The position numbers and the translations under genes are program-made. Shown in pieces: positions 39,755 to 60,300 of a stretch of DNA of 64,000 nt. Location of the stretch: NCBI GenBank assembly GCA_963803805.1, contig CAWDOD010000008.1:64001-128000 (forward strand), given 5' to 3'. This DNA comes from an uncultured cyanobacterium. Lineage in GTDB: Bacteria > Cyanobacteriota > Cyanobacteriia > Cyanobacteriales > CAWCAG01. The notes below the pieces were generated by a model. The model saw only the letters and a program-made list of their open reading frames with translations, did no database searches and was not told the origin of the DNA. Position 1 is the stretch's first letter; the number at the start of each line of letters is the position of its first letter.

Positions 39755-39851
39755 GTTTTTAGTTTCTAAAAATAATCTTTAAAGTTTTGTTTAAGACTAT
39801 CCTCTTCGTACTAGACAATGCTATTGATAATCCTGCGTTAGAATCTAACCT

Positions 39852-39897
39852 AATGCTATATCCCAATTAAATTAAATGCTATATCCCAATTAAATTA
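39852..39897 (+). repeat. Perfect 23-bp tandem duplication
   Basis: AATGCTATATCCCAATTAAATTA twice. Confidence 0.9.
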
Positions 39898-40001
39898 GGG
39901 GATAATTTTTATAGCAAAAATTACCTTTTACCCTTTACCCCTAAATAAAAAATTGACGGGTAAAAGGGTACTACTTCTTTGAATAGGGACTATTAAAAAT
40001 A

Positions 40002-43000
40002 ATGATCCGCAAGAATACCACTACCTCTTCAGGCGAAAATAACTTTTTCATAGTCAGTATCGGCGCTTCCGCTGGTGGTGTCCAAGCCTTAGAGTCATTT
40101 TTTGGTAACGTCCCAGATCACCCCAATGCTGCTTTTGTCGTCGTACAGCATCTTTCTCCCAATCACAAAAGCATGATGAGCGAGATTCTTCAACGGCAGA
40201 CAGCAATGCCTGTACAGGAAGTAGAAGATCAAATGCCCTTGGAGCCAAGTAAAGTTTATGTTTTGCCTCCTGGGAAAAGTTTAGTCTTAGAAAATTGCTC
40301 CTTACGCCTCCAAAAAAAATCAGAAGCACGCAACTATCCTATTAATCAATTTTTCCAATCTTTAGTCGAAGAATGGGGAGAGCGAACCATCGCTATTCTT
40401 CTTTCAGGTACTGGTAACGATGGAACAGAAGGATTACAAGCGGTTAGCAGAGCCGGAGGAATTGCTTTAGTGCAATCTTCAGAAACGGCCCAATTTACTA
40501 GTATGCCTAGTAGCGCTATTCCCTCTGGTTTAGTCGATGAAGTCCTTTCCCCCCAAGATTTAGCCCAAACCGTTTTTGAGTTAATTCGCTTTTCAGAAAA
40601 CTTTCCTAACTCCACAGCAGAAGAGGCTAGTTTAATTGATCCTGATCTGTTGCAAAGAATTCTTGATGTGCTTGCTGAGCGGGAAGAAATTGACTTCTCC
40701 CATTACAAAGTTAGCACCCTAAGCCGCCGCATTCACCATCGCTGCGCCTTAACCAGGAAAAGTAGCTTAGAAGATTATATTGGTTTCCTAGAAGATTCTG
40801 AAGAAGAGCAGAAATTGTTGCGTCAAGATTTACTTATTGGGGCAACCTGCTTCTTTCGCGATCGCAGCGCTTGGGAATTTCTTGAAACTAAAGTATTACC
40901 AAAAATAATTGCTGAACTACAACCCCAACAACAACTAAGGGTTTGGGTTTCAGCCTGTGCCACAGGGGAAGAAGCTTACTCAATGGCGATTTTGGTAGAT
41001 GAAGCCATTCGCAGAGCAGGAAAATCAGTACAAGTGAAAATTTTTGCTACTGATCTAGATACCAATGCCCTAGAGGTAGCTGCTCAAGGTATTTACCCCG
41101 AAAGCATTGCCAGTGATATTTCTCCAGAGCGTTTAGAATACTACTTTACCTCTGACAGCAACAACTTTAGGGTTAAGCGATCTCTAAGGGAAATGCTGAT
41201 TGTTGCCCCTCACGATCTGACTAAAAATGCAGGCTTCTCCAAAATGAACTTGGTAAGCTGTCGCAATGTTTTAATTTATATGCAACCGCAACTACAACAA
41301 CAGGTTCTGCGTTTACTGCATTTTGCTTTAGGTTCCCATGGAGTTCTATTTTTGGGCAGTTCCGAAACCCTAGGGGGTTTAGAAGAGGAATTTACCCCCC
41401 TAAATAACAAGTGTAAAATTTTTCGCAAACGGCGGGATAATCAACTATCCTTAATGCCCATTACTAGGCAAACTATCGTTACCCCCATCCACCAAGCATC
41501 TAGCCGTTCAAAAAGTAGGCAACAGCAACTAGACAGGCTTTTAGGAGAAGTATTTAAGTATTGTTTATCAGAGCGGCAAATTACCTGCTTATTAGTTAAT
41601 CAAAATAATCAACTGCTGCGGGTTTTTTACAATGCTGCTCGTTTATTAGAATTTCCCGTTGGGCAGCCAGTTTTAGATGTTACTGAAATCGTTCATCCTA
41701 GTTTAAAGCTTCCTCTTAGTACCGCCTTACATCGCACTAAGCGAGACAAAACCCCAGTCCTCTATACAGGAGTTAAACTAGAAAGAGATGGTGAACAACG
41801 AAATATTAGCCTGCGGGTAGGCATAGATGAAAGTAGTCGCCACAGCGAAAACCATCGCATTGTGGTTTTAGAAATAGAAGAACAACCAACCCCAGTTTCC
41901 ACTGTGGCCCTCGCTTTTGACCTAGATACAGAAGCGACTCAGCGTATCACCGAGTTAGAATACGAACTGCAACAGACTCGTGAGAATTTGCAAGTTACCA
42001 TTGAAGAATTAGAAACTACCAACGAAGAACAGCAAGCAACCAACGAAGAATTACTAGCTTCTAATGAAGAGTTGCAAAGTACTAACGAAGAACTCCAGTC
42101 AGTTAACGAAGAGCTTTATACAGTTAATGCAGAGTATCAGTCTAAAATTCAGGAACTGACACAGCTTAACAATGATATTAATAACTTACTCCGTAGCACT
42201 AATATTGGTGTTGTCTTTCTGGATCGGGATTTGAATATTCGTAAATTTACCCCTGCAGCAACCCGTGCCATTAATATTAAATCAACAGATATCGGCCGCC
42301 CCTTAGCAGATATTACCCATAACCTAAGCTGTTCTGACTTACTCGAAATTCTCCAGCAAGTGGCAGATACAGAAGAACCAGTAGAGCAAGAAGTCTGTTT
42401 TGCTGATTCCGATGAATGTTCCTTAATGCGGGTAAATCCCTATTTTCAAGACAATGCTGGTAGCAATGGTGTGGTAGTTACTTTTGTTGATATTGATGAG
42501 TTAAAGCGAGTACAAGATGAACTTTATCAAGCTAATGAAATTTTAGAAAATCTCTATGCTACTAGTCCTGTCGGTTTATCTTTGCACGATAAAGATTTAA
42601 AGTTTTTGCGTATCAATGAAGCTCTTGCTGGCATTAATGGTTATTCTATCGAAGAGCATTTAGGTAAAACTTTACAAGAGCTTATTCCTGAGTTAGCACA
42701 GCAGGTTGAACCCTTACTGCGTCAAGTAATAGAGACTGGTGAAGCGATTTATGGCATAGAAATTTGTGGTAACACAGCAAGAGATTCCAGTCAAGAGCGC
42801 CATTGGATAGGTAGCTACTATCCTGTTGATTTTCTGCGGGATGGGTTGGGAGTTGGTGCTGTAGTTGTGGAAATAACTGAGCGAATTCGCTCTGAAGAAG
42901 CCCTAAAACGCAGCAAAGCAAAGCTTTTACAAGCACAGCGCTTAGCTCAAGTGGGCAACTGGGAATGGGTAATAGAGGAAGGAAAAGAACTAAATGAGGC

Positions 43001-44507
43001 CCAAATAAATTGCTCAGAAGAATTGGTTGGTATTTATGGATTTACTCCTGACCAAGAATTGCCAACCTTTGCCGAACTACTCCAACACCATAATCCTAAA
43101 GACAGGGAAATACTGCAACAAGCCATAAAACAGCTACTTGCAGAGGGTAGTCCTTACAACTTAGATTTACAATACAATCGCCCAGATGGAGAAAGGCGTT
43201 ACTTAAATATGATTGGTAGAGCAGTTATTGATCAGGAAGGGAAAGTAACCAAACTCTACGGTGCAGTAATAGATATTACTGAGCGCAAGAAAATTGAAGG
43301 AAAATTAGTAGAGCAAAATCAAGCTTTGGAAGAAGCGATCGCAGTTGCCCAAGCAGCAGATTCTGCCAATCAAGCTAAAAGCGAATTTTTGGCGAATATG
43401 AGTCACGAAATCCGCACCCCCATGAATTCTGTGTTGGGGGTTAGTCAACTTTTATCACAAACAGATTTGAATCTTGAACAACAGAGACTGCTGGAAACCT
43501 TGAGAAGCAATGGAGAAAAGTTACTGGCACTTATTGATGATATCCTCGATTTGTCTAAACTGGAAGCCAAAAAACTGCAACTAGAATCAAGGGAATTTAA
43601 TCTTGATGCTTTAGGCAATAATCTCAGGAATTTGTATGATGCTCAAGTGAAGAAAAAACAACTGGAATTTGCCATTGAGATTGCTGCCGATGTACCTCGC
43701 AACTTAATTGGTGATGAATTTCGCCTCCAGCAAGTGCTAAGTAACTTACTCAGCAACGCTATGAAGTTTACAGAGTCTGGACAGATTACTGTAGCTATTG
43801 CTCAGCAATCGGAACAAGAAGATGATAATTCTTTGGCTATCCTCCGGTTTGAAGTGCAAGATACAGGCATTGGTATTCCTGTTCAAGCCCAAGAAGAATT
43901 ATTTCAGCCCTTTATTCAAGTTGATGCCTCCACAACCCGCCAGTATGGAGGAACCGGGTTAGGATTAACTATTAGCCGCCGTATCATACAATTAATGGGA
44001 GGAGAAATTGGTGTTACGAGTACTTCGGGTGAAGGTTCCAACTTTTGGTTTACAGTTCCTTTAGAAGTGGTTGCAACTCCTACTTCCTCCCCTACATCAC
44101 AAAAACCTGATGCAGCCAAATCTGCGGTTGTATCCCTAGCCAATCTCAAAGTGCTAATTGTCGAAGATCGAGAAGACAACCGTTACATACTCCAACTAAT
44201 GGTACAAAGATTAGGCTGTCAAAGCGATTGGGTTGACAATGGACAAAAAGCTGTAGAACACTTGCTAGAAAACGATTACAACATCATCCTTATGGATTGT
44301 CAAATGCCAGTCATGGATGGCTACGAAGCGACGCAAATCATACGACAAAGAGAAGAAGAAGCGCAACGTAAGGTGATTATTGGCCTTACTGCTAATGCCA
44401 TGGAAGGCGATCGCGACAAGTGTTTAGCTGCTGGTATGGATGATTATCTTAGCAAACCCATTATGTATGATGCTTTGGCAAAGGTGTTGAGTTATTGGGC
44501 TAATTAG
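40002..44507 (+). CDS. CheB/CheR fusion with PAS domains, histidine kinase and receiver
   Basis: [14 protein letters not shown] (CheB); [10 protein letters not shown] (CheR); coiled coil; [18 protein letters not shown]. Confidence 0.93.
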
Positions 44508-44532
44508 GTAATGGGTATTGAAGATAGTAATT

Positions 44533-46792
44533 ATGATTAAAAAGCCAAAATTAAAAAGTAGCTTCCGTTGGGAAAAAGTCGATTCACAAGGGAGCTTTTT
44601 ATTGTCTGAGAAAGAGACAGTATTTCTCAGGGAGCCTTTGTACCAAAAGTTAATACCCTTGCTTGATGGCAAGCGGACCCAGGAAGAGATTGTTACTCAA
44701 CTTAGCAACGAATTACCAGAGGCTTATATCTTTTATGGGCTTATGGAGTTGGAGCAGAAGGGTTTGATTATTGAAAATGCACCAATCTTAGAGCCGAATT
44801 TTACTTTATTGTGTGAGTCTTTGCTTGTTGATACTCAACAAGGAAAGCAGCAATCGCAATCAACTCAAGTTACCCTCAAAACATTGGGTTCTTTGTCTGG
44901 GAAAGATTTAAAGCAAAGCTTAGAGCAATCGTCAGATTCAAATTGCTGATGATGGAGATATTGAAGTTGTTCTAACCGACGACTATTTACGAGAAGAATT
45001 AGAGGCAATTAATCGAGTTAATCTTGCTAAATCTCGTCCTTGGATGTTGGTTAAACCTGTCGGCACTCTTCTTTGGCTTGGTCCAATCTTCCAACCGGGA
45101 AAAACTGGATGTTGGCAATGTTTAGCACAACGATTGCGAAATAATCGACCCTCAGAAGGATTTATCCAGCGACGCAGAGATAGTCTTTCTCCTTTAACAC
45201 CTCCCCTAGTTGGGTTGCCCACAACTCAACAGACCGCTACAGCCATGGCAGCCCAGGAAATTCTTAAATGGATTCTCCAAGGCAAAAATCAACGTTTAGA
45301 AGGGGTGATGGTAACTTACGACACCCTCTCCCTAACTTTGCAAAACCACATTCTTGTCAAACGCCCCCAATGTCCAGAGTGTGGCTACATCAAACCCCAA
45401 AACAACCGACCTTTACCCATTATTCTTGGTAGTCGCAAAAAAAGATTCACCAAAGATGGTGGACATCGTAGCCTCACCCCGGAGGAAACCTTAGCCCGCT
45501 ATCAACACCACGTTAGTCCTTTTTTAGGAGTAATACGTTCTATAGAAAAGCTACCCTACGATTGCAACGGCTTAGCTCATATCTACAGAGTCAAGCATCA
45601 TTGGGCTTCTGTCTTTGATGATTGCGAGAACTTGCAAAAAAATCTGGGAGGACGCAGTGCAGGTAAAGGTAGAACAGCAGCCCAAGGTAAAGCTAGTGGT
45701 TTAGGGGAAGCTATAGAACGCTATTGCGGCGTATTTCAGGGAGATGAAGTCACTATTAAGAGCAGCTACAAAAAGCTAGGCAATGACGCTATTCATCCAT
45801 ACAGTTGTCTTAATTTTAGTCAGACTCAATATGACAATCGTAAATCCTGGAATGCACAACGTACCACCCAGTTTCAAAGAGTACCCGAACCTTTTGATGA
45901 AACTAGAGAAATTGCCTGGACTCCGGTTTGGTCTTTGACTCAGCAAGACTTTAAATATTTACCCACAGCCTATTGTTATTTCGGCTATCCCCAATCGCTT
46001 CCTAGGGACTGTTGGGCTAACACCAATGGTTGCGCTGCGGGCAATACCCTAGAAGAAGCAATTTTACAGGGATTTTTAGAATTAGTAGAGCGGGACAGTG
46101 CAGCCTTGTGGTGGTACAACCGTTTACCCAAGCCGAAAGTTGCTTTAGAGACTTTCGACGAGCCTTATTTTCAAGCTATAACTGCTCATTACGACTCCCT
46201 AGGGCGGGAATTTTGGGTTCTTGATTTAACAAGCGACTTGAATATTCCCACCTTTGTAGCTATTTCACGGCGCTTTAACCATCCTGTAGAAGATTTAATT
46301 TTCGGGTTTGGTACACATTTTGACCCCAAACTAGCTATCCAAAGAGCGCTAACAGAAGTTTGTCAAGTACTCCCGGCAGTTTTGAACGCCAATCCTGATG
46401 GTACAACCCGCTATGCAAGTTCGGCTGAGTCTCAGATTCTCCACTGGTGGCAAACAGCAACCTTAGATAACCAGCCTTATTTAGCCCCCTACAATGACAT
46501 TGCCCCAAAATGTAGTGGTGACTATGAATATGAAGTTGTCTGGCATGAAGATTTCTTAGAAGACATCAAATACTGTCAACATCTTGTGGAAGAAAGAGGT
46601 ATGGAAATGCTCGTCCTCAATCAAACCCGCCCTGATATCGGTTTAAAAGTAGTCAAGGTCATTGTTCCCGGTTTACGACACTTCTGGAAGCGGTTAGCCC
46701 CAGGAAGATTATATAATGTCCCTGTCGAGATGGGCTGGCTTCAACAGCCATTGCAGGAGGAAGAATTGAATCCCATTCCTTTGTGGATGTAA
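44533..46792 (+). pseudogene. TOMM cyclodehydratase (leader-binding, E1-like, YcaO fusion), frameshifted near 44930
   Basis: Second frame is open upstream of 45044 (QIQIADDGDIEVVLTDDYL); CWQC, CPEC, DGGHR, GEAIERY, NGCAAG, ELVERD, C-terminal NPIPLWM. Confidence 0.88.
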
Positions 46793-46821: not shown

Positions 46822-47904
46822 ATGCTAAACGGTTATCGCATTATTGACGCAGACTCCCATGTTTTTGAGCCTCATTCTTTGTGGCAAACCTATCTTGAAC
46901 CTGCCTTTCGTGACTTTGCTCCTACACCAGACTTGCAGATTCAAGGGGTTTCGGTAATGACTAAATTTTCTAACACTCTGACTGATAAGGGGGCTGAAGA
47001 GGTGGCGCGATCGCATCCCCTCTCTTTTGCTCAAGAATTTAATCCAGAATCCCAAGTACAAGCGATGTACCAAATGGGAGTTGATGTTGCTTTTGTTTAC
47101 CCCACCTACCTAGCTTGGATTAGCGGTGTAGATACCATGGCTCCCCAACAAGTAGGGGCTTATGTCCGTGCCTACAATAGCTGGCTACGAGACTTTTGTA
47201 GTTATAACCCAGATATTTTAAAAGGAATCGGCGTTATTAATCTCCATGCCCCGGAGGAGATGGTTCCTGAACTGCAACGGATTGCTGATTTTGGTTGGAA
47301 AGCTGTTTACTTACGCCCTAATCCCGTTAAGGGAAGATTACTTAGTGACCCTGCTTATGAGCCGTTTTGGGCTGAATGCGAAAAACTCGACATTGCCGTC
47401 AGTCTCCACGAAACCACCCATAGTCGCGTCCCTAGTGCTGGTGCAGACCGCTTTCACAGCCGCTTTGCCCTACACGCCTGCTCTCACCCCATGGAACAGA
47501 TGATGGCTTTGTTAGCGCTGATTGAGGGGGGAGTTTTAGAAAACCATCCCCAGCTTAGGGTAGGATTTCTTGAATCCGGTTGCGGTTGGCTGCCCTACTG
47601 GTTGTGGCGACTTGACCGTGAGTACGAAGATTTGCGCTGGGAAGTGGGGGATAAGGTGAAGATGAAGCCCTCAGAGTATTTTCGCCGTCAGTGTTTTATT
47701 GCAGTGGAACCTTCAGAAACCTATATTCCTAAGCTGTTAGAGGAACTGGGAGTAGATAATCTCATTTTCGGTTCCGACTATCCCCATATCGACCACAACC
47801 CTGATGTGGTTGCTGATATGGTGGCTCTTGAAGGATGCTTAGGCAAGGAAGTTTTGCAAAAGATTCTTTGGGATAATCCCCGTCGGTTTTACGGTTTGGG
47901 CTAA
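46822..47904 (+). CDS. Amidohydrolase family protein (amidohydro_2-like)
   Basis: IIDADSH, SLHE, FLESG, FGSDYPH, NPRRFY. Confidence 0.9.
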   Translation: MLNGYRIIDADSHVFEPHSLWQTYLEPAFRDFAPTPDLQIQGVSVMTKFSNTLTDKGAEEVARSHPLSFAQEFNPESQVQAMYQMGVDVAFVYPTYLAWISGVDTMAPQQVGAYVRAYNSWLRDFCSYNPDILKGIGVINLHAPEEMVPELQRIADFGWKAVYLRPNPVKGRLLSDPAYEPFWAECEKLDIAVSLHETTHSRVPSAGADRFHSRFALHACSHPMEQMMALLALIEGGVLENHPQLRVGFLESGCGWLPYWLWRLDREYEDLRWEVGDKVKMKPSEYFRRQCFIAVEPSETYIPKLLEELGVDNLIFGSDYPHIDHNPDVVADMVALEGCLGKEVLQKILWDNPRRFYGLG

Positions 47905-48017: not shown

Positions 48018-48668
48018 GTGCTAAGTGCAGATGCGTTGAGCTTTCAGGAATTTATGAACCGCGAATCTTTGTCAATCGCCACTTTACATGGTGCAGTTTT
48101 TGAGTTTTTGCGAAACCGCCAAGATGTGGTTGTATTTGGGGCGCAAGCGGTAAATGCCTATACTGGAGAGCCGCGTATGACTCAGGATATTGATGTTATG
48201 GCTCTACGAGGAGCAGATTTAGCCGAAGAGTTACGCCTTTATTTAAGCGTAGGCAAAGCCCGCCGCAGGCATCGCTTTTACATTGCTATGAGAGTGAGAG
48301 TAATTAAAGGGGGGTTAGGTTATCGGCTCTACCAAGTGCAAAAAACAGGTGATCGACATCTGGTTGATATTCGCCAAGTAGAGACTTTGCCAGAAAATCG
48401 TCCCTTTGAAGGGGTATTAGTGATGGCTCCGGAGTCGTTGGTGGTGAGCAAGGTAATTGCCTATTACCAACGACAAGGTAAGCCCAAGGCAGGAACAGAT
48501 TGGCGTGATTTGGCTCTGTTGTTGTTGGCTTTTCCAGAGTTGAAAGTAGAGTCTGGTGTTGTTTTAGCAGGTTTGAGGGCAGCAAGGGTAGAAGAAGCTG
48601 TCATCTCTTTATGGCGAAAGATTGTGGCAACGCCAATTGAGACTGATGATGAAGATGAGGATTTTTAG
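48018..48668 (+). CDS. Nucleotidyltransferase, AbiEii/AbiGii-like
   Basis: FGAQAVNAY...RMTQDID, K...DWRD. Confidence 0.75.
   Translation: MLSADALSFQEFMNRESLSIATLHGAVFEFLRNRQDVVVFGAQAVNAYTGEPRMTQDIDVMALRGADLAEELRLYLSVGKARRRHRFYIAMRVRVIKGGLGYRLYQVQKTGDRHLVDIRQVETLPENRPFEGVLVMAPESLVVSKVIAYYQRQGKPKAGTDWRDLALLLLAFPELKVESGVVLAGLRAARVEEAVISLWRKIVATPIETDDEDEDF
48250..48270 (+). mobile_element. 21-nt small dispersed repeat (SDR5-type) inserted in a HIP1 site
   Basis: GCG + TAGGCAAAGCCCGCCGCAGGC + ATCGC. Confidence 0.8.
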
Positions 48669-49254: not shown

Positions 49255-50658
49255 ATGAGACTTTCTAAACGCCTTATTGGTATTTTTTATGCAATCCTGG
49301 CTTGTGTTGTATGTGTTGTTTTGGTAGTGCTGAGTGGTCAGAATGCTTGGACTCAGACTAAGGGTATACCTATACCTGAGTTGAAGTCTGAGATTCCTCA
49401 CAATCCCCCTCCTCTTACCAAAAAAGAGGAAGCTTTCGGAGCTTTTGCCTGGCAGACATTTGTTGCTCTAAACTGGCCTGCCGATTGCAAAACGGGTTCT
49501 TCAAAGGACATAAAAATTGGTCAAGCTCATGAGGAGCCTAGAGTTTGGGAATTTTACAACTTTCCTGAGAGTGTATTTCATTCCAACTTGGAAAAATCTG
49601 TTCCCTTAGAGAATCCGTCTCAGTGTCATCCTAACCAATCGATTGCAGTACCAGTGCGATATACTGAACCGGCAGATGACCCCGATTTTCAATTCCGGCG
49701 ACTCGCATTAATTGATCAGTCTGGAAATTACATTCTCAACGAGATTCACCTCAATCCGACAGAAGTCAACCAAATCGTTGCTCAAGGATGGAATTCTCCT
49801 AATAACCTTGTAAATTTCAATGATCAAGATAATAAGTTTGCTTTAGTTTGTAGTGATAACAACGAAGGCAAGGAAGGGTTTCCTTGTGAGACAAAGGATG
49901 ATGTCGGTGCGATTGAAATTAAGGCAGCTTGGAGAGTTTTACCAGATTTAAAAGAACAGGAGGTAAAAGACGATCAATATTACTCCCTCTGCGGATCATC
50001 TAAGGTTGCTAATGAATATAAAGACAAATATTACATTACTTGCCGAACTTTTGAAGTTGAAGACCTTCAAAAGCAAAAAAAAGAGCTAACAGTCCCTGTA
50101 GGTTTGGTTGGTTTCCATATCATGCAAAAAACTAGTGATCAAGGTTGGATTTTTTCAACCTTTGAACATATAGATAATGTTCGCGATGAGTCTAACCAAA
50201 ATTCCACTAAGTACACTCTCTTTGACCCAAATTGCCAAGGAGATTACTGTAAGCCAAACTACCCTTTTGCTAAGAAACCTTATTTGTGGAGTGATCAATC
50301 TCCCTATGGTTTTACTGAAGGTGAAAAAGCTCAAATTCACTCTCAAATTATCCGAGAGGTTCCCATTACTAAAGTAGCTAAAGAATTGAATGAAAAATGG
50401 AAACAAGAGCTAAAAGGTTCTATATGGCAATATTATCAATTGATTGGCACACAATGGTTAGAGGAATTTGATGTTCCAAACACTCATAATATTGAACCGA
50501 CTACAGGTACTGACTTCTCAAAGTTAGCTAATGTAACTCTCGAACCTTATATTCAGAAGACAAAATTGGGAATGTCTTGTATGAAGTGTCATATTAACGC
50601 ACAACTTCCTAACAACGCTTCTGCTGATTTTAGCTTCTTGTTGAATGAGCATGACTAA
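49255..50658 (+). CDS. Exported protein with C-terminal CxxCH (putative cytochrome c)
   Basis: N-terminal signal/TM; AWQTFVALNWP, IEIKAAW, LVGFHI, STFEH, YQLIGTQW; SCMKCH. Confidence 0.75.
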   Translation: MRLSKRLIGIFYAILACVVCVVLVVLSGQNAWTQTKGIPIPELKSEIPHNPPPLTKKEEAFGAFAWQTFVALNWPADCKTGSSKDIKIGQAHEEPRVWEFYNFPESVFHSNLEKSVPLENPSQCHPNQSIAVPVRYTEPADDPDFQFRRLALIDQSGNYILNEIHLNPTEVNQIVAQGWNSPNNLVNFNDQDNKFALVCSDNNEGKEGFPCETKDDVGAIEIKAAWRVLPDLKEQEVKDDQYYSLCGSSKVANEYKDKYYITCRTFEVEDLQKQKKELTVPVGLVGFHIMQKTSDQGWIFSTFEHIDNVRDESNQNSTKYTLFDPNCQGDYCKPNYPFAKKPYLWSDQSPYGFTEGEKAQIHSQIIREVPITKVAKELNEKWKQELKGSIWQYYQLIGTQWLEEFDVPNTHNIEPTTGTDFSKLANVTLEPYIQKTKLGMSCMKCHINAQLPNNASADFSFLLNEHD

Positions 50659-50772
50659 AGTTTTTCTGATGGAAAAGTTAAGAGTAAATCCACTGTTTCT
50701 CTAGACTAATTTTACTCTTCTGAATTTAATTTTCACTCAATCTATTAACCTTAACTTAAGGAGAATTTCACA

Positions 50773-51420
50773 ATGACAGACTATTCTTGGGAAACCTCAT
50801 TACCCTCTTATTTGAAAGAAAATTACTCAAATGAGATCAAAGAGGCTGTAACACAATGGTCTCGGATTGTTGCTTGGTCATGGACTCCAATCCTCGCCGC
50901 CGTAAAAGAGGATGACAACAGCAAGGTATCGCCAGAGAAAGAGCAAAAACTCAAGCAAGTATTTCTCGAAATTGTACAACGGCAAGGTCAGCTTTCAAAC
51001 GCATACGAATCTTACGGTAATTTTAGGGGTAACAATAACAAAACCCAGGCTGAAAGTTTAGCTTCTGACTTCAAGAATCTTCTGTTAGGGAAAAATAACG
51101 AGGTAGAGTTTGAAGATCTTAGAGAGGTCGATGTTACTTTGTCCGATGTTTTATACGGGCTTTATGGCAAGCCTTATGTTTTTACCAAAAACGAAACATT
51201 TACTAATATGTTTGAATTTCGGGTTATAACTGATTACACAGGAAAAATCATAGAAGTAGAAGAAGGAAAAGAATATATTTCTCTGATGGCCTATCCTCCT
51301 CGCCCCGCTTTGAGTGAAGTAACAGTTACAGAGCAACAATTAGAAGATTGGGCCAAGAATATCAATACCGGAGGTAGCTACCTTCCTCCTTCTCTGTATA
51401 TTCCCATTGCTGCTTGCTAA
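50773..51420 (+). CDS. Hypothetical protein, NHLP/TOMM-precursor-like
   Basis: AAGGAG RBS; WSRIVAWSW, YPPRP, TEQQLEDW, GG, C-terminal YIPIAAC. Confidence 0.6.
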   Translation: MTDYSWETSLPSYLKENYSNEIKEAVTQWSRIVAWSWTPILAAVKEDDNSKVSPEKEQKLKQVFLEIVQRQGQLSNAYESYGNFRGNNNKTQAESLASDFKNLLLGKNNEVEFEDLREVDVTLSDVLYGLYGKPYVFTKNETFTNMFEFRVITDYTGKIIEVEEGKEYISLMAYPPRPALSEVTVTEQQLEDWAKNINTGGSYLPPSLYIPIAAC

Positions 51421-51461
51421 ATTTAGGAAAAGTTTTTACTGCTTTTTGAATTAGATACTTG

Positions 51462-51495
51462 GTCTCCTAAATTTTTCGATTTTAGGAGACTTTTT
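51462..51495 (+). terminator. Rho-independent terminator
   Basis: GTCTCCTAAA / TTTAGGAGAC stem followed by TTTTT. Confidence 0.75.
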
Positions 51496-51550
51496 CAATC
51501 AGTACTTTTCCTAATGACGAATACTTGTTTTTAACAGATTTTGTTAATGG

Positions 51551-51632: not shown

Positions 51633-54600
51633 ATGAGTACAATCACGGCTTATGAAATTATTGCCAAAATTTACGACAGTGCCAACTCTGTTGTTTATCG
51701 CGCCAAGCACAAAACCGGTGACCATAAGGTCATCCTCAAAGTTCTTAAGCAAGACTATCCTACCCCCTCAGAACTAACCCGATACAAACAAGAATACGAA
51801 ATCACTCGCTCTCTCAAAATTGCCGGGGTCGTCACCGCCTATGAGTTATTCCCCTACGAAAATACCCTTGCGATCGCATTAGAAGATTTCGGTGGTCAAT
51901 CCCTAAGTTTATTATTACAATCTCAAAGTTTTACCCTCTTAGAATTCCTACAAATTGCTATTCAAACTGCTCAAATTCTCGAAGAAATTCATAGCGCCAA
52001 TATTATTCACAAAGATATTAATCCTTCTAACATTCTTCTCAATCCTGAAACTGGACAAGTAAAAATTATTGACTTTGGTCTTTCCACTGTCTTTGCAAAA
52101 GAAAAGCCCCTCATCAAAAACCCTGATGTATTAGAAGGGACTTTGGCTTATATGTCCCCAGAGCAAACAGGAAGAATGAATCGCTCCCTCGACTACAGGA
52201 CAGACTTATATTCTCTGGGGGCAACCTTCTACACTCTCCTCACCAAACGCCTAGTCTTTGAAACCCAAGATGCCCTAGAATTGGTTCATTGCCATCTCGC
52301 CCAAGCCCCCACTCCTCCTCAGCAAATCGACCCAGCAATCCCCCCGATTTTGTCCCAAATCATCCTCAAGCTGCTGGCCAAAACAGCAGAGGAACGCTAT
52401 CAAAGTGCATTGGGGCTAAAAGCCGACTTAGAAGAATGTCGTCTCCAGTTAACACAAACTGGCAAAATAGAAGAATTTCCTCTAGCTCGTCACGATGTCG
52501 TAGAGCAACTGCAAATCCCCCAAAAACTCTACGGTAGAGCCTCCGAAATAGAACAGTTACTCTCAGCATTCAACCGAGTTAGCCAAACTGAAGAAACTAC
52601 AACAGCAAATCATCTAGAAATGATGTTAGTAGGGGGATATTCTGGCATTGGTAAAACTGCCCTAATTCAAGAACTTTACAAACCCCTCTCCCAAAAGCAC
52701 GGCTATTTCATTGCAGGTAAATTCGACCAATTTCAACGTAATATTCCCTATTCTGCACCCATTTCCGCTTTTAAATCCCTCGTGCGCCAGCTACTCACAG
52801 AAAGCGAAGAGCAATTGCAACAATGGCGAGAAAAGCTACAAACCGCCTTGGGTATTAACGGACAAGTCATTGTAGATGGAGTCCCCGAAATAGAAGAAAT
52901 CATCGGCCCTCAACCTCCGCTTCAACCCCTAGAACCTGCCCAAGCAAAAAATCGCTTTCATCAAGTTTTTCGAGATTTCATGAGGGTATTTTGTAAGCGT
53001 TCACATCCTTTAGTAATCTTTTTAGATGACTTGCAATGGGCTGATTTTGGTACGCTTGAACTTTTAGAGTTAATGATGAGCGACCAACAACTTGAATCTT
53101 TGCTTTTACTGGGTGCTTATCGAGACAACGAAGTTGATAACAATCACCCTACAATCGTCACCATTGAAAGATTAAAAGAACAAGGTGCAGTTGTAAATCA
53201 GATTATTCTCAAGCCCCTCAACTCAGATCATATTACTCAACTGCTCAGAGAAACCCTGCATCGTGATGCAGAAAGTGTTACCTCTCTAACGGAATTAATC
53301 TTACAAAAAACATCGGGCAATCCTTTTTTCATCAACGAATTTCTCACCAACCTCTACCAAGAAAATCTCCTAACCTTCAACCGCAACAGTCAATCTTGGC
53401 AATGGGAAGAATCGCAAATTCAAGCCTTGGGCATCACCGACAATGTTGTCGATTTAATGGTGGGCAAATTGAGAAAATTGCCAGAAGCAACCCAGAAAGC
53501 TTTACGTTTGGGAGCTTGCATTGGTAATCGTTTTGAGCTTAGTATTCTGGCGATAATTTACGAGCAATCCTCCGCAGAAACCTTTGACGCTCTTTTACCA
53601 GCCATACAACAAAGTTTAATTGAACCCACTTCAGAGCTAGAAACTACCTCAAAAACTGCCGTTGAATCTACTTTAGTAATTACAAATTATAAGTTTCGCC
53701 ATGATCGTATTCAACAGGCTGCTTATAATCTCATTGAGCAAAACCATAGCAAAACAGTTCATCTGCAAATAGGCAAGTTGTTACTAGCTAATTTACAACC
53801 AGAAGAACAACAGGAAAAAATATTCACCTTAGTCGATCATCTCAACAAAGGGCTTGAGTTGCTCGAAAGTAAGGAAGATAAAATCAAGGTTTTAGAACTC
53901 AATTTAGATGCAGGTAAAAAAGCGAAAGATGCCATTGCTTACCCCGCAGCACAAGACTATTTGCGGACAGTTGAAAAAGACTTTCCTGGAGATATTTGGC
54001 AAGAAAGCTACGCAATGGCTCTCGATCTTTACAAAGAACTTGCCGAAATTGAATACCTCAATGGCAATCTTCAAGAATCTCAAGAATTACTTCGACTAGC
54101 TATTGAGCGAGTAAAATCTCCCCTTGATGGTGCAGAATTTTACTACCTCCAAATTGTACAGTTAGGTTTACAAGGAAAACTTGAACAAGCTATAGAAGTG
54201 GGAAGAGTAGCCCTACAAACTCTCGGAGAAAATTTGCCTGAAGATAATTTTCAAGCAGCATTTGAGCAAGAATTGAGAGAATATCATCAAAACTTAGGTG
54301 AGCGTTCCATCGAAGAATTGTACGATAGTCCTGAAATGAATTTTTTGGATAAGCAAGCTATTTTTAAAATACTATCTCGCATTTTCCCTCCTGCTTTGAT
54401 ATTGGGTGCAGGATTAGCTAATCTTATTTGCACTAAGATGGTAAATCTTAATATCAAATATGGACATACACCAATATCTCCCATAGCTTACAGTTTCTTT
54501 AGTAGTATTAACTCTTCTGCTCTCAAAGAATATCGTACAGGCTATGAATTGACCTCTCTTAGTATAAAACTATCAAATAAGTATGAGAATTTGCTTTCTA

Positions 54601-57194
54601 AAGGAATAGCTTGTCAGTTTCATGGAAATATAACTGCACCTTGGCTAGTTCATGTTAAATATTCTGAAAAGATCAACGATGAGGGAATTAATTGCAGTTT
54701 ACAAGTTGGAGATTTGCAAGTTGCTGGCTACACACAGGGCCATGCTTTTTATACTTCAATATATCAAGGCAAAAATTTAGAAATATTGCTTAAAGAACTT
54801 GAAAGAAGACTTTCTTTTGGTAAAGAAACTCAAAACTATTGGTCAGTGGGCTGTCTTCTCGCTGCTAAAATAATCCTGATTAACTTAGTAGGTAAAAGTC
54901 GAGACAGATTATGTTTTGAATTAAAGGAAACATCTGAATCTGATTTTTTAAATGATTGTCAACAAAATCAAGCGTTATCTGCACTTTGTCTTTATCAAAT
55001 ATTAAAAGCACAAGTACTTTATTTGTATGAGGAACCTGCTCCTTTAAGCTTACTAGAACAATCAGCTAACCTATTAGGTTTTATATTTGGCACAATATCA
55101 ATAGCCAAACATAACTTTTACTACTCCCTCACCCTCCTCGCCCATTATCCCAACGCCTCACCCCAACAACAACAGGAATACTGGCAGCAAGTCGAAACCA
55201 ATCAAAAACAGATGCAAGCATGGGCTGATAACTGCGAAGCTAACTTCCTCCATAAATACCTCCTCGTTGCCGCAGAAATGGCTCGTATCTCCGATAACTG
55301 GCAAGAGGCAATGGAACTTTATGACCGTGCGATCGCATCTGCCAAAAAACATGAATTTGTCCAAAACGAAGCCTTAAGCAACGAACTAGCGGCTAAATTC
55401 TGGTTAGGACGAGACAAAAAAGACTTTGCTAAACTCTACATGAAAAAAGCCCACCAAGGCTACCAAATCTGGGGGGCAAAACGCAAAGTTGAAGACCTCG
55501 AACAAAAGTATCCCCAGTGGTTTACCTCCTCCTCCTCTAAATCCAACAGCATCACCACCACCCCAACCATAACAACCTCCGGACGCTCTAGTAAATACCT
55601 TGATATCGACACAGTTATCAAAGCCTCAGAAGCCCTATCAAAAGAAATTGTCCTCCAAGACTTACTGGCAAAATTAATGAAAGTCGCTATCGCTAACGCT
55701 GGGGCGCAAAAGGGTTTCTTAATCTTAGAAAAAGAGGGCAATTGGTTCATCGAAGCAGAGGGAAACATCAACGACAGTGAAGCAAAACTATTAGAATCGA
55801 TTCCCATCCAAGCCCAAGAACACCCAGAAAACGCCTTACTTTCTTGCGCGATCGCTAACTACGTAATTCGTCTCAAAGAAAACGTCATCCTCGACGATGC
55901 CACCAGTGCCGGAAACTTCACCAAAGACCCCTACATCCTCACCAACCGCCCCAAATCCATCCTCTGTACCCCCCTAATCAACCAAGGGAAACTAAGCGGC
56001 ATCCTCTACCTAGAAAACAACCTCACCACTAACGCCTTTACCCGCGATCGCGTAGAAATCCTACGCACCCTCTCTGCCCAAGCCGCCATCTCCATCGAAA
56101 ACGCCCAACTTTACCAACGTCTCGAAGACTACAACCGCACCCTAGAACAACAAGTAGCTGAACGTACCGAACAGTTACAGCAAAATAACCAAGAATTAAG
56201 CCAAACCTTACAAGAACTCAAAACCACCCAAAACGAACTAATCCAATCAGAAAAAATGGCTGCCCTCGGTCAACTAGTTGCTGGTGTGGCTCACGAGATC
56301 AATACCCCCCTGGGAGCTATCCGCGCTGCCATCGGCAATACAGATAAAGCTCTGCAAGATTCCCTATCCCAACTACCTCACCTCCTCCCCCAACTCAACC
56401 CACAACAGCAAACTGACTTTTTCAACCTCATTGACCAAGCCCTCATCCCCCACGAAAGCCTGAGTACTCGCGAAAAACGCAAAATCAAGCGCAGCCTTAC
56501 CGCAAAACTTAACTCATCTGAAGTTGCCGAAGCTAAACAAGTTGCCCATCTCCTTACCGAAGGGGGATTGCATAATGAGATTACTGAAACTCAACTTGCT
56601 CTGTTGCAAACCCCACAAGCTAAACAGATTGTGCAAATTGCTTACAACATTGCCCGCCTTAATGCTAGCAGTCAGAATATTAATAATGCCGTAGAAAGAG
56701 CTTCAAAGATTGTCTTTGCTCTCAAAAGCTACGCCCGTTACGATTATAGCGGAGAAAAGCAAGTAGCTAAAATGACTGATGGTTTAGAAACTGTCTTGGA
56801 ACTTTACCGCAACTATCTTAAAAAAGGTGTTACAGTCACTCGCAATTATCAAAGCGTACCAGCAATTCCCTGCTATAGTGATGAACTAGTACAGGTCTGG
56901 ACAAACTTAATCCATAATGCTATACAAGCTATGGATGGTCAGGGTAAATTGGAAATTGGGGTAGCTCAGCAACAAGAAAATATCCTTGTGGAAATTACAG
57001 ATTCAGGGGCAGGTATTCCCCCAGAAGTTGCTGAAAAAATCTTCGACCCCTTCTTCACCACCAAACCTGCTGGGGAAGGTAGCGGCTTGGGGTTAGATAT
57101 TGTTCGCAAAATAATTACCAAACACCAGGGAAATATTACTTTTGAATCCATTCCCGGTAAAACCACTTTTAAAGTTACTTTACCCATTAGTTAG
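51633..57194 (+). CDS. Ser/Thr kinase - AAA ATPase - GAF - histidine kinase
   Basis: HKDINPSN, DFG, GYSGIGKT, LDDLQWAD, YLENN, VAHEINTP, G boxes. Confidence 0.93.
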   Translation: MSTITAYEIIAKIYDSANSVVYRAKHKTGDHKVILKVLKQDYPTPSELTRYKQEYEITRSLKIAGVVTAYELFPYENTLAIALEDFGGQSLSLLLQSQSFTLLEFLQIAIQTAQILEEIHSANIIHKDINPSNILLNPETGQVKIIDFGLSTVFAKEKPLIKNPDVLEGTLAYMSPEQTGRMNRSLDYRTDLYSLGATFYTLLTKRLVFETQDALELVHCHLAQAPTPPQQIDPAIPPILSQIILKLLAKTAEERYQSALGLKADLEECRLQLTQTGKIEEFPLARHDVVEQLQIPQKLYGRASEIEQLLSAFNRVSQTEETTTANHLEMMLVGGYSGIGKTALIQELYKPLSQKHGYFIAGKFDQFQRNIPYSAPISAFKSLVRQLLTESEEQLQQWREKLQTALGINGQVIVDGVPEIEEIIGPQPPLQPLEPAQAKNRFHQVFRDFMRVFCKRSHPLVIFLDDLQWADFGTLELLELMMSDQQLESLLLLGAYRDNEVDNNHPTIVTIERLKEQGAVVNQIILKPLNSDHITQLLRETLHRDAESVTSLTELILQKTSGNPFFINEFLTNLYQENLLTFNRNSQSWQWEESQIQALGITDNVVDLMVGKLRKLPEATQKALRLGACIGNRFELSILAIIYEQSSAETFDALLPAIQQSLIEPTSELETTSKTAVESTLVITNYKFRHDRIQQAAYNLIEQNHSKTVHLQIGKLLLANLQPEEQQEKIFTLVDHLNKGLELLESKEDKIKVLELNLDAGKKAKDAIAYPAAQDYLRTVEKDFPGDIWQESYAMALDLYKELAEIEYLNGNLQESQELLRLAIERVKSPLDGAEFYYLQIVQLGLQGKLEQAIEVGRVALQTLGENLPEDNFQAAFEQELREYHQNLGERSIEELYDSPEMNFLDKQAIFKILSRIFPPALILGAGLANLICTKMVNLNIKYGHTPISPIAYSFFSSINSSALKEYRTGYELTSLSIKLSNKYENLLSKGIACQFHGNITAPWLVHVKYSEKINDEGINCSLQVGDLQVAGYTQGHAFYTSIYQGKNLEILLKELERRLSFGKETQNYWSVGCLLAAKIILINLVGKSRDRLCFELKETSESDFLNDCQQNQALSALCLYQILKAQVLYLYEEPAPLSLLEQSANLLGFIFGTISIAKHNFYYSLTLLAHYPNASPQQQQEYWQQVETNQKQMQAWADNCEANFLHKYLLVAAEMARISDNWQEAMELYDRAIASAKKHEFVQNEALSNELAAKFWLGRDKKDFAKLYMKKAHQGYQIWGAKRKVEDLEQKYPQWFTSSSSKSNSITTTPTITTSGRSSKYLDIDTVIKASEALSKEIVLQDLLAKLMKVAIANAGAQKGFLILEKEGNWFIEAEGNINDSEAKLLESIPIQAQEHPENALLSCAIANYVIRLKENVILDDATSAGNFTKDPYILTNRPKSILCTPLINQGKLSGILYLENNLTTNAFTRDRVEILRTLSAQAAISIENAQLYQRLEDYNRTLEQQVAERTEQLQQNNQELSQTLQELKTTQNELIQSEKMAALGQLVAGVAHEINTPLGAIRAAIGNTDKALQDSLSQLPHLLPQLNPQQQTDFFNLIDQALIPHESLSTREKRKIKRSLTAKLNSSEVAEAKQVAHLLTEGGLHNEITETQLALLQTPQAKQIVQIAYNIARLNASSQNINNAVERASKIVFALKSYARYDYSGEKQVAKMTDGLETVLELYRNYLKKGVTVTRNYQSVPAIPCYSDELVQVWTNLIHNAIQAMDGQGKLEIGVAQQQENILVEITDSGAGIPPEVAEKIFDPFFTTKPAGEGSGLGLDIVRKIITKHQGNITFESIPGKTTFKVTLPIS

Positions 57195-57338: not shown

Positions 57339-60300
57339 ATGGGTACAATCACGGCTTACAAAATTATTGCCAAAATCTATGACAGCGCCAACTCTATCGT
57401 TTACCGCGCTAAACATAAAACTGACAACCAAAATGTCATCCTCAAAGTACTTAAACAAGACTATCCCCCACCGCGACGCATCACTGAATTTCAGAGGGAA
57501 TATGAAATTACTAACTCACTAAATTTAACTGGTGTAGTTAAGGTTTACGACATCATAGAAACTGGTGATCATCGCTGGCTAATCGTAGTAGAAGATTTTG
57601 AAGCTCAATCCCTAAAACAAATCATCCAAAACCAGCAATTAACTCTAGATGAATTTTTGTTTGTAGCGATTAAAGTTAGCCAAATTTTGGGTGAAGTGCA
57701 TCAGAGACACATTATCCACAAAGATATCAATCCTTCTAACATAGTTTGGAATCGGCAAACCAACATAATTAAAATCATCGACTTCGGAATTTCTACTAAA
57801 CTCTCACGAGAAACTACAACTTTCCGTAACCCAAATCAGTTGGAAGGTACTTTAGCTTACATATCCCCAGAGCAAACCGGCAGGATGAATAGGGAGATAG
57901 ATTACCGGAGCGACTTTTATTCCCTCGGTGTCACTTTCTACGAATTGCTAGTAGGGCAACTACCTTTTGAAACAACAGAGCCGATGGAGTTGGTACACTC
58001 CCACATTGCTAAACAACCAATATCACCTCACCAGAAAAAACAAGACATTCCCTTAGTTATTTCCCAGATTGTGATGAAGTTGATGGCTAAAACGGCCGAA
58101 GAAAGATATCAAAGCGCTTGGGGATTAAAAGCCGATTTAGAAACTTGCTTCCAGGAGTTGCAAAACCGTGAGCAGATTTCTGCATTTGCTCTGGGGAGTC
58201 GGGATGTTTGTGAGCAATTCCAAATTCCCCAAAAACTTTATGGGCGACAAGAGCAGGTAGAGCAACTCTTAGCAAGCTTTGAACGAGCTAGCGCAGGTGC
58301 AATAGAAATGTTACTAGTAGCGGGTTATTCCGGCATTGGTAAGTCAGCTTTAGTTAACGAAATTTACAAGCCAATTACCAGGCAAAAAGGATATTTTGTT
58401 TCCGGTAAATTTGATCAATTTAGGCGAGATATTCCTTATGATGCCCTGATTCAAGCTTTACAAGAGTTAGTAAGGCAGTTGCTAACAGAAACTGAAGTGC
58501 AATTGCAACTATGGCAGCAAAAGTTATTAGAAGCTTTGGGTCGTAATGGTCAGGTAATTATAGATGTCATTCCTGAAGTAGAGCTAATTATCGGTAAACA
58601 GCCAAGAGTCCCCCAGCTAGGGCCTACTGAGTCTGAAAATCGCTTTAACTTAGTTTTTCAAAACTTTATGGGGGCATTTGCTCAGAAAGAACATCCCTTA
58701 GTGATTTTTATTGATGATCTGCAATGGGCCGATTTAGCATCTTTGAAGTTGCTGGAGTTGTTGATGACTCAAAGCGATCGCCAGTATCTTTCTTTAATCG
58801 GTGCTTATCGAGATAATGAGGTTAGTGCTGTTCATCCTTTAATCCAAACCCTAGAACGAATTAAAGAGCAAGATGCTAAGGTAAATGTGATTACCCTAGA
58901 GCCATTGAAGATCAATTGGGTTAACCAGTTAATTGCTGATGCTCTGAAATGCTCTACAGATAGATCACAACCCCTAGCAAAGCTAGTATTCAAGAAAACT
59001 AACGGCAATCCCTTCTTCTTAACCCAGTTACTCCAATCTTTATATACAGAAAACTTGTTATCTTTTGCTCCTCATAGCGGTCTTTGGGAGTGGGATATTG
59101 ACCAAATTCAAGCTGTAGGAATCACTGATAACGTTGTTGAGTTGATGGTCGGCAAAATTGAAAAGTTAGAAGACCGAACTCAGAAACTATTAAAATTAGC
59201 TGCCTGTATTGGTAACAAATTTGACTTAGCAATTCTTTCAGTAATTAGCGGCAAATCCATAGCAGATACTGGAGTCGATTTATGGCCTGCTTTGAAACAA
59301 GGTTTGATTAGTCCTTTAAGCGATGCCTACAAACTGCTCATACTGCAACGTGAAAATATCAGCCTTCAACCCTCAGCAATCTCTTCTGTTGCTATCCCTT
59401 ACAAGTTTCTGCATGACAGAGTGCAGCAAGCGGCCTATGCTCTGATTCCTGAAGCACAAAAACAACAAGTTCACTTACAAATTGGTAAGCTGCTGTTGCA
59501 GAATACTGATTCAGAGAAACTAGAAGAAAACATCTTCGATTTAGTTAACCAGCTTAATATTGGGGCAGATTTAATTAGTGATGTTTCCGAAAGAAACGAA
59601 CTAGCTCGATTAAATCTCATTGCTGGCAAAAAAGCAAAAGCATCCGCAGCCTATCAAGCAGCAGTCAAATACTTAAGGGTAGGTTTGGGATTGCTGGCAT
59701 CGGATAGTTGGGAAAAAGAATACAACCTGACTCTTGCTTTATATGTAGAAACTGTTAGTGCAGAATATCTTAACACCGAATTTGCATCAGCAGAAAAGTT
59801 AGCTGCCACAGTTTTGGAACAAGTTCAAAGCACAATAGATAAAGTCGAAGTCTATGAGATTAAAATCCAGTCCTATAGATCTCAATCTCAATTTCAAAAA
59901 GCTATAGATACTGCCCTAGAAATTTCAGCACAACTAGGAGTAGTTTTGCCATCACAGCCAAGCCAAGAGGATATTTATGCAGAAAAACAAGCTATAGAAG
60001 CTTTTTTAGAAGACAAACAAATTGAAGATTTAACTCAGTTACCAGAAATGGCCAATCCTTATAAAATAGCAACCTTAAGGATTTTAGTTAGTATCTTGAG
60101 TTCGGCATTCGCTAGCAATCAACCCTTGTTTGCGTTACTAACATTGAATATTGTCCATACATCTATCAAATATGGCAATTCCCCTATGGCTGTTGGTGGC
60201 TACAGTTGTTACAGTTCTTTATTAGCAACTACTCAAAGTCTTGATGATGCTTATAAATTTGGTCAACTATCTTTTAATTTGTTAGAAAAATATAATCTAC

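Follow-up and report, generated by a model that had tools for sequence, protein, structure and literature searches.

Introduction

Nitrile-hydratase-like leaders (NHLPs) are known substrates of azoline-forming YcaO enzymes (PMC12455567) and consist of three bundled helices, a sheet of two strands and a tail (PMC12537861), with hypervariable cores (PMC4603692). In the NHLP-Burk system of Burkholderiales, a two-chain thiazole/oxazole-modified microcin (TOMM) system, the cluster also holds a giant Ser/Thr-kinase/AAA protein (PMC2887384). LynB7, a cyanobacterial PtmU3 relative 77% identical to BarH, is reported to turn 2-substituted thiazoline-4-carboxylic acids into thiazoles with Fe2+ and O2 and to reject the carboxamide (PMC10127204). 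The dominant BarH-like clade, which has no known product, has a ‘thiazoline synthase’ as neighbour in ~69% of cases, and one of its enzymes, E0U9F9, was reported to use a diiron cofactor in decarboxylating a model thiazoline acid (PMC13154177). Here we describe a locus in which both enzyme types stand beside a gene for a 215-aa protein of an unnamed family, within a 64,000-nt stretch of an uncultured cyanobacterium of the order Cyanobacteriales (GenBank assembly GCA_963803805.1, contig CAWDOD010000008.1, positions 64,001 to 128,000; hereafter the window, to whose numbering and + strand all coordinates below refer unless a locus is named).

A sequence-only reading of the window had presented this protein as an oversized NHLP-like precursor and substrate of the YcaO enzyme, with a leader of about 200 aa and a possible thiazoline at its C-terminus. 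We hold, with moderate confidence, that it is a folded, protein-sized substrate of NHLP descent, serving a two-enzyme pathway that would install an azole at its C-terminus.

Results

A protein family with a conserved C-terminal tail

The gene (50773–51420, stop codon included) was delimited from the open reading frame (ORF) list and by reading the sequence directly. A Shine-Dalgarno sequence, AAGGAG (50758–50763), lies 9 nt 5′ of its ATG, and a terminator-like hairpin followed by U5 (51461–51496; 11-bp stem of 51461–51471 and 51481–51491, 9-nt loop) begins 40 nt 3′ of its stop codon within a 90-nt stretch folding at −21.6 kcal/mol (z = −3.5), which confirms the ribosome-binding site and the own terminator claimed for the gene; the consensus terminator scan, with its loop limit of 8 nt, had omitted this hairpin. 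A 3169-nt metagenome contig matched 49174–51600 without a difference, and a second strain variant encodes a protein 98% identical to this one. The motifs named by the sequence-only reading were all found in place in the ORF: WSRIVAWSW (residues 29–37, 50857–50883), resembling the helix ‘motif 1’ of NHLPs; the PxxP motif YPPRP (residues 174–178, 51292–51306; mean top-residue frequency 0.88); TVTEQQLEDWAKNINTGG after it; and then the 14-residue tail SYLPPSLYIPIAAC (residues 202–215, 51376–51417), which contains YLPPSLYIP and ends in Cys215 (51415–51417), directly followed by TAA.

Homologues numbered 24 in a word-indexed search and 65 cluster representatives in an exhaustive one, nearly all of 200–270 aa. 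The 215-aa protein itself matched no Pfam and no NCBIfam model, and among 63 family members none matched Pfam at E ≤ 0.01 or the NHLP-type NCBIfam models at E ≤ 0.1. All organism-named homologues and the 23 titled genome loci are cyanobacterial, except for one titled ‘uncultured bacterium’; of 401 cyanobacterial genomes sampled, 14 had a match to the family profile, every one in the source genome's order, and a profile search of the source genome gave one family member and one YcaO. Three proteins (P0031, P0043 and P0063, 408–446 aa) matched the family in 2–4 stretches and may be tandem fusions of two members.

Across the 63 homologues, the top three conserved 9-mers were, in order, YLPPSLYIP (203–211), WSRIVAWSW (29–37) and AYPPRPALS (173–181), and because the named motifs are thus the best-conserved 9-mers of the family, they are more than chance. 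The tail is the best-conserved segment of all, and its last residue is Thr in 22, Cys in 21 and Ser in 18 members, i.e. one of the three in 61 of 63. The Gly-Gly before the tail is not conserved (segment 196–202, mean top-residue frequency 0.36), and the supposed core is the conserved part rather than a variable one, so that the notion of a cleavable ~200-aa leader ending in Gly-Gly and followed by a core was not supported as put forward. Ser207 was considered as a modified residue and rejected, relatives having Asn, Ala, Leu or Pro there.

The neighbouring cyclodehydratase and diiron enzyme

Upstream of the gene, a cyclodehydratase is encoded in two parts, an N-terminal fragment with the winged-helix leader-binding (RRE) domain (44518–44949; PF21084, E 1.5e-10) and an open frame of 622 aa with the E1-like and YcaO domains (44924–46792, first start codon, ATG, at 45044; PF02624 at E 1e-103, TIGR03882, TIGR03604). 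MusD, LynD and TruD, which form azolines, are matched with E values of 1e-167 to 1e-179, and by these matches it is assigned to the LynD/TruD/MusD-type fused RRE-E1-YcaO cyclodehydratases; it is uninterrupted in all 14 relatives examined.

The next gene (46822–47904) encodes an ‘amidohydrolase’ whose top PDB relative is PtmU3, a non-haem diiron monooxygenase of amidohydrolase fold (E 2e-37). LynB7 has the ligands D11, H13, H197, E252, D320 and H323 and a family-specific D325, according to its report (PMC10127204), and at these positions the enzyme here carries D11, H13, H196, E251, D319, H322 and D324, the first six being invariant in 19 of 19 cluster-linked copies and position 324 being Asp in 14 and Glu in 5 (L016, L017, L019, L020 and L023). 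From the PtmU3 match and the ligand set, the protein is a BarH/LynB7-like dinuclear (diiron) oxygenase and a putative azoline-4-carboxylate oxidative decarboxylase. It was found at ≥62% identity in 24 of the 401 sampled genomes. E0U9F9 was considered as the enzyme of the PCC 7822 plasmid cluster described below and discarded, that enzyme being E0ULZ8.

Conservation of the cluster in relatives

Two sets of loci were compared, namely 23 loci fetched around members of the 215-aa family and searched with the source-region proteins, and 20 loci of at most 20 kb each around further ‘amidohydrolase’ copies. The fused cyclodehydratase was found in 16 of 23 loci of the first set and 17 of 20 of the second, the ‘amidohydrolase’ in 17 of 23 and in all 20 (chosen around it), and a protein matching the family hidden Markov model (HMM) in all 23 (chosen by it) and in 15 of 20, which bears out the expected linkage of homologues to YcaO. 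The giant Ser/Thr kinase described below was present in 16/23 and 19/20, thus accompanying the cluster in 35 of the 43 loci, and ORF clustering likewise returned its gene as a further constant neighbour. A 467-aa CxxCH protein (see below) occurred in 16 of 23 loci of the first set and in none of the 20 of the second, and is therefore tied to the subfamily of ~215-aa substrates only. Among the seven YcaO-less loci of the first set, the match lies within ~640 nt of the contig start in L004, L007, L008 and L010 (in L008 with 6.8 kb of downstream DNA holding no cluster gene), and L021 and L022 are contigs under 5 kb; the seventh, L015, is taken up in the Discussion. Of the seven, L008 and L015 offered enough sequence for a YcaO to appear, yet none did. 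Neighbouring genes touch one another in compact clusters, L013 for example, leaving no room for another precursor.

The second set yielded 18 proteins of 104–397 aa matching the family HMM, all with a ..P(Y/F)(I/L)P(L/T/V/P/F)(S/T)(C/S/T).. tail, and the last residue is Cys, Ser or Thr in 15 of them. Gloeothece citriformis PCC 7424 carries an intact cluster on its plasmid pP742401, with PCC7424_RS26890 as YcaO, RS26895 as diiron enzyme and RS26905 as substrate, and the homologues of the 215-aa and 467-aa proteins are annotated ‘hypothetical’ there; the substrate homologue, B7KLY3, shares 50% identity and has ..YLPPSIYIPIAGT at its end.

Several variant arrangements were seen. On plasmid Cy782201 of Gloeothece verrucosa PCC 7822 (L059), two fused YcaO genes and a SagB-type dehydrogenase surround a 233-aa member ending ..PYIPISAST, which suggests additional internal azoles. 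In loci of Microcoleus/Argonema type (L016–L020 and L023), the order is CxxCH gene (not found in L023), substrate gene, YcaO and diiron enzyme, with an extra O-methyltransferase (PF00891). In L009, L013 and L020 an AAA_35 protein comes before the cluster. In L102, with kin in L098–L100 and a YcaO ~50% identical, a 109-aa protein ending ..GILRVC is encoded just upstream of the YcaO (L102:5706–6035); by profile comparison it is NHLP-like (94.8%), and it would give the two enzymes a second type of precursor.

Structure model and relation to NHLPs

AlphaFold2 with the family alignment gave a confident single-domain model (mean predicted local distance difference test score, pLDDT, 93), consisting in order of helices, one of which (19–37) includes WSRIVAWSW, a sheet of three strands that finishes at YPPRP, a short helix across TEQQLEDW, and the tail, with pLDDT values of 95 and 86 for the tail blocks. 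The nitrile-hydratase-like fold that had been expected was not found: Foldseek with this model returned no match at E ≤ 0.001, VIA-align in its wide mode returned 0 of 48161 chains at Z ≥ 5 (top Z 4.3), ESM Atlas gave no usable match for the protein, and the sole match of the family profile to PDB sequences was a retroviral one at chance level. When the 215-aa protein was modelled in complex with both cyclodehydratase parts, RRE fragment and E1-YcaO, the prediction scored 0.00, a value that counts neither for nor against binding.

Direct comparison did not place the family among NHLPs. TIGR03793 (cut-off 50.9 bits) had no match at E ≤ 0.1 in the 215-aa protein or the 63 members, and none at E ≤ 1 anywhere in the source genome; the direct profile–profile comparison with NHLP was insignificant (3.7%), and so was that with a widened C-terminal profile (12.7%), in which YPPRP..TVTEQQL was aligned with the NHLP PxxP..ELSDEEL; YPPRP faced the NHLP PxxP in the direct comparison as well. 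As a positive control, NHLP-Burk against NHLP gave 97.7%. TIGR03795 (cut-off 41 bits), whose true members score 151–153 bits, had no match in the 215-aa protein either, and the family reached 1.2% against the NHLP-Burk profile; the idea that two NHLP-Burk halves are fused in one protein was rejected, with 0.3% between its N-half and C-half and no internal duplication. Thus, neither of the two NHLP models proposed for comparison recognised the protein.

An intermediate was found in a 116-aa protein adjoining the diiron enzyme at L108:7887–8237 and ending ..YPAAYIPLSCC, which matched NHLP at 97.8% over residues 7–105 and the 215-aa family at 98.0% over residues 60–116, the two overlapping at 60–105; it also matched the HMMs TIGR04351 (E 8e-9), TIGR03793 (E 2.8e-6) and, weakly, nitrile hydratase alpha. 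Through this protein YPPRP aligns with the NHLP PxxP. Because this intermediate matches both sides, we take the 215-aa family to have arisen from NHLP leaders by expansion, on transitive evidence and not as a member, and read the C-terminal module and the order of helix motif, sheet, PxxP and acidic helix as shared. We take this order to agree with the topology published for NHLPs (PMC12537861). The label ‘NHLP-like’ of the sequence-only reading accordingly survives by this indirect route, while the HMMs, direct profiles and fold searches did not bear it out.

Comparison with described systems

Like the NHLPs, the 215-aa protein is a folded, protein-like entity with helices, a small β-sheet, a PxxP motif and an acidic helix, and would have an azoline-forming YcaO as partner; the distance from motif 1 to PxxP, however, is ~140 residues in this family versus roughly 50 in the NHLPs compared, no Gly-Gly is conserved, the tail is conserved rather than hypervariable, and the cluster is without transporter or peptidase.

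The NHLP-Burk system (TIGR03795 with the TIGR03903 kinase/cyclase) shares with this locus a conserved precursor C-terminus ending in Cys, a fused cyclodehydratase and a giant Ser/Thr-kinase/AAA protein. Its layout on a Burkholderia plasmid is an FHA protein, the TOMM kinase/cyclase, two BMA_0021/22 genes and YcaO; the second chain ends ..AAYNDAGPxYLFTCC, nearly invariant (24/24), and a fused Variovorax form ends ..YNNTGSAYPFTC (..NNTGSAYPFTC), to be compared with ..NINTGGSYLPPS..C in the 215-aa protein. The two systems differ in that the precursor is a tandem pair or a fusion there and a single gene here, that the Burkholderia loci are without diiron enzyme and CxxCH protein, and that the kinase ends in a cyclase there and in GAF and His-kinase domains here. 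Both giant kinases of the window match TIGR03903 positions 482–926, the AAA region, at E 1e-41 and 1e-45, below the cut-off.

The proposed conversion of a C-terminal thiazoline-4-carboxylate to a thiazole has its parallel in BarH, LynB7 and DolJ, which belong to the non-ribosomal peptide synthetase (NRPS) routes to the terminal thiazole of barbamide, lyngbyapeptin and dolastatin 10, and in the bottromycin P450, and the cluster enzyme shares the ligand positions of BarH/LynB7. The BarH, LynB7 and DolJ routes rely on an NRPS Cy domain to form the thiazoline, and do so on a small molecule; in the present cluster a YcaO would form the ring, and its carrier would be a ribosomal protein of 215 aa. 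Compared with the cyanobactin systems of LynD, TruD, PatD and MusD, the cyclodehydratase is of the same type. Heterocyclisation of the last core residue is common in cyanobactins. They differ from this locus, which has no PatA/PatG proteases and a folded protein with one conserved tail instead of PatE-type cassettes between recognition sequences.

Other neighbouring genes

Directly upstream of the substrate gene lies the gene for the 467-aa protein (49255–50658), predicted to be exported, with alignment showing an N-terminal signal-like segment (AxA site), a DFSFLL motif and an invariant SCxxCH near the C-terminus. It matched nothing in Pfam, NCBIfam or PDB sequences, and its model (pLDDT 59) returned nothing from Foldseek. 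In a Spirulina sp. contig (L001, 1–10671), three copies of the substrate gene and two full and one partial copies of the CxxCH gene lie inside 10.6 kb, the two genes being duplicated together as a pair.

Downstream, the conserved cluster neighbour is a 1853-aa protein of Ser/Thr kinase, AAA_16, TPR, GAF and His-kinase domains by domain scan (51633–57194), followed by a second tandem copy of 1847 aa (57339–62882; ORF list, domain match). By eye, the two look near-identical over their C-terminal ~500 residues, which would point to a recent duplication or to gene conversion. Farther upstream, 38036–44507 encodes a Ser/Thr-kinase/TPR protein and a 1501-aa CheB-CheR-PAS-His-kinase-receiver hybrid, which together with the giant kinases form a dense signalling neighbourhood. 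Between the diiron enzyme and the CxxCH gene, 48018–48668 holds an ORF for an AbiEii-like nucleotidyltransferase (216 aa), at a place with hardly any spacer in compact relatives; one contig is without 21 nt at 48250, and in the contig of a related strain 48541 is linked to 44533 through 193 other letters, pointing to a different gene order.

Discussion

From the observed gene linkage, conservation pattern, enzyme family assignments and ligand residues we infer two steps of a pathway and add a third speculatively. Judging by context and homology, the YcaO cyclodehydratase would cyclise Cys215 onto the carbonyl of Ala214 to give a C-terminal thiazoline-4-carboxylate (−18 Da), and the BarH/LynB7-like diiron oxygenase would oxidatively decarboxylate this thiazoline to a terminal thiazole (a further −46 Da), making Cys215 a thiazoline-then-thiazole site; relatives ending in Ser or Thr would yield oxazoles. 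Such a two-enzyme azole pathway would explain both the position of the reactive residue at the very C-terminus and the interchange of Cys, Ser and Thr there, and a free azoline-4-carboxylate, with the ring residue last, fits 61/63 family members and 15/18 wider relatives. Given the diiron ligand set that the neighbouring enzyme shares with BarH/LynB7, a thiazoline made by YcaO would probably go on to the decarboxylated thiazole. As a speculative third step, the product would stay a modified protein or conserved tail acting with the giant kinase and the exported CxxCH protein, and would not be a variable exported antibiotic. Searches of the conserved gene groups around 24 loci and of the scanned cluster proteins gave no C39 peptidase, no other protease and no ABC transporter, and since a conserved cleavage site is lacking too, whereas the tail is both conserved and confidently modelled, the product may indeed stay a protein.

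The order of NHLP-like motifs, i.e. IVAWSW helix, β-strands, PxxP, acidic TxxQLxxW helix and, in this copy, Gly-Gly, would also suit a classical NHLP-type precursor of a peptide that is made by ribosomes and modified after translation (RiPP), in which leader 1–201 is cut off behind Gly-Gly and the core of 14 residues gains its heterocycles, is set free and leaves the cell as a bioactive peptide; profile comparison marks the 116-aa relative as a real NHLP (97.8%), and NHLPs are described as serving azoline-forming YcaOs (PMC12455567). We nevertheless consider this reading improbable, for the Gly-Gly is unconserved, a protease or ABC transporter is missing from the conserved gene groups of the 24 loci and from the scanned cluster proteins, the tail is modelled confidently and not as disordered, and the supposed core is the most conserved part of the protein, as opposed to the hypervariable cores of NHLPs reported in PMC4603692. 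That the CxxCH and substrate genes travel and duplicate as a pair (L001), that L015 has this pair without a nearby YcaO, and that the 215-aa protein is well folded in its model could instead mark an accessory, scaffold or regulatory partner, e.g. of the CxxCH protein or the giant kinase, with the tail as a binding motif and the YcaO acting elsewhere. The chances of this seem equally slight or slighter: the free interchange of Cys, Ser and Thr at the last position suits cyclodehydration and not a binding motif, the wider relatives lacking the CxxCH gene keep YcaO, diiron enzyme and tail, and the compact clusters offer no other candidate ORF.

Several observations nonetheless weigh against the folded-substrate reading. 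Two of the 63 members end otherwise, in ..CGL and ..GSF, as do three of the 18 wider relatives, in ..SCL; L015, with full 10-kb flanks, has CxxCH gene, substrate gene and kinase and no YcaO or diiron enzyme within 10 kb, its genome having two YcaO genes elsewhere. The tail is packed on the fold in the model, while the two enzymes would need access to it; LynB7-type activity is known for small-molecule thiazolines only, not for oxazolines or proteins; and the 215-aa protein has no signal peptide, so that the exported CxxCH partner is left unexplained. Finally, a frameshift near 44921–44932 splits the RRE domain from the E1-like/YcaO domains, and at this split the pathway of the source genome may be dead or the assembly wrong. 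The locus in the source strain could thus be a relic, the protein being encoded and left unmodified beside a cyclodehydratase pseudogene, which is compatible with the other readings for the family. This view draws on the separation of the domains, on the ~40 residues of the second reading frame that precede its first start codon, and on the split gene being the sole YcaO of the genome. All other cluster genes are intact, however, and metagenome contigs of a ~91%-identical strain carry indels of −2 at 44924 and +1 at 44932, a net change of one base at this very site, which is taken to restore the frame. That strain's contig covers the site in two of four metagenome runs of one study, the other two having no depth there, and with no contig of the exact strain shown across it an assembly error is possible; a relic is a tentative explanation that we do not favour. 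The earlier claim that the 215-aa protein is the YcaO substrate, modified at its last residue, is supported by its context (YcaO in 16/23 loci and 17/20 wider ones, and 61/63 members ending in Cys, Ser or Thr) and falters at the frameshifted YcaO of the source genome.

Taking the folded-substrate reading further, the cluster might be a signalling or cofactor module and not an antibiotic one, its decarboxylated azole tail being read by, or controlling, the giant Ser/Thr-kinase/STAND/GAF/His-kinase, with an exported c-type haem protein as a further partner, the Burkholderiales TOMM/kinase-cyclase system as its sister, and its protein as the native substrate of the orphan BarH-like clade; we put this forward as a rather doubtful extension. 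In the literature searched, with subscription papers and supplements outside the search, neither a 215-aa precursor family of this kind nor a ribosomal pathway of YcaO and a BarH-like enzyme was described, the exception being the neighbourhood remark in PMC13154177.

If the folded-substrate reading is true, it would name the natural substrate for a recently characterised orphan clade of diiron oxidative decarboxylases and would be, to judge by our searches, the first instance of a YcaO and such an enzyme jointly making a C-terminal azole in a ribosomal pathway. The idea is directly testable, since the culture-collection strain Gloeothece citriformis PCC 7424 carries an intact copy on its plasmid pP742401. 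The concept of ‘protein-like leaders’ would come to include a protein that may, as a whole, be its pathway's product. For a regulatory role of backbone heterocycles, a question open since 2010, the strict kinase linkage here and in Burkholderia NHLP-Burk is suggestive.

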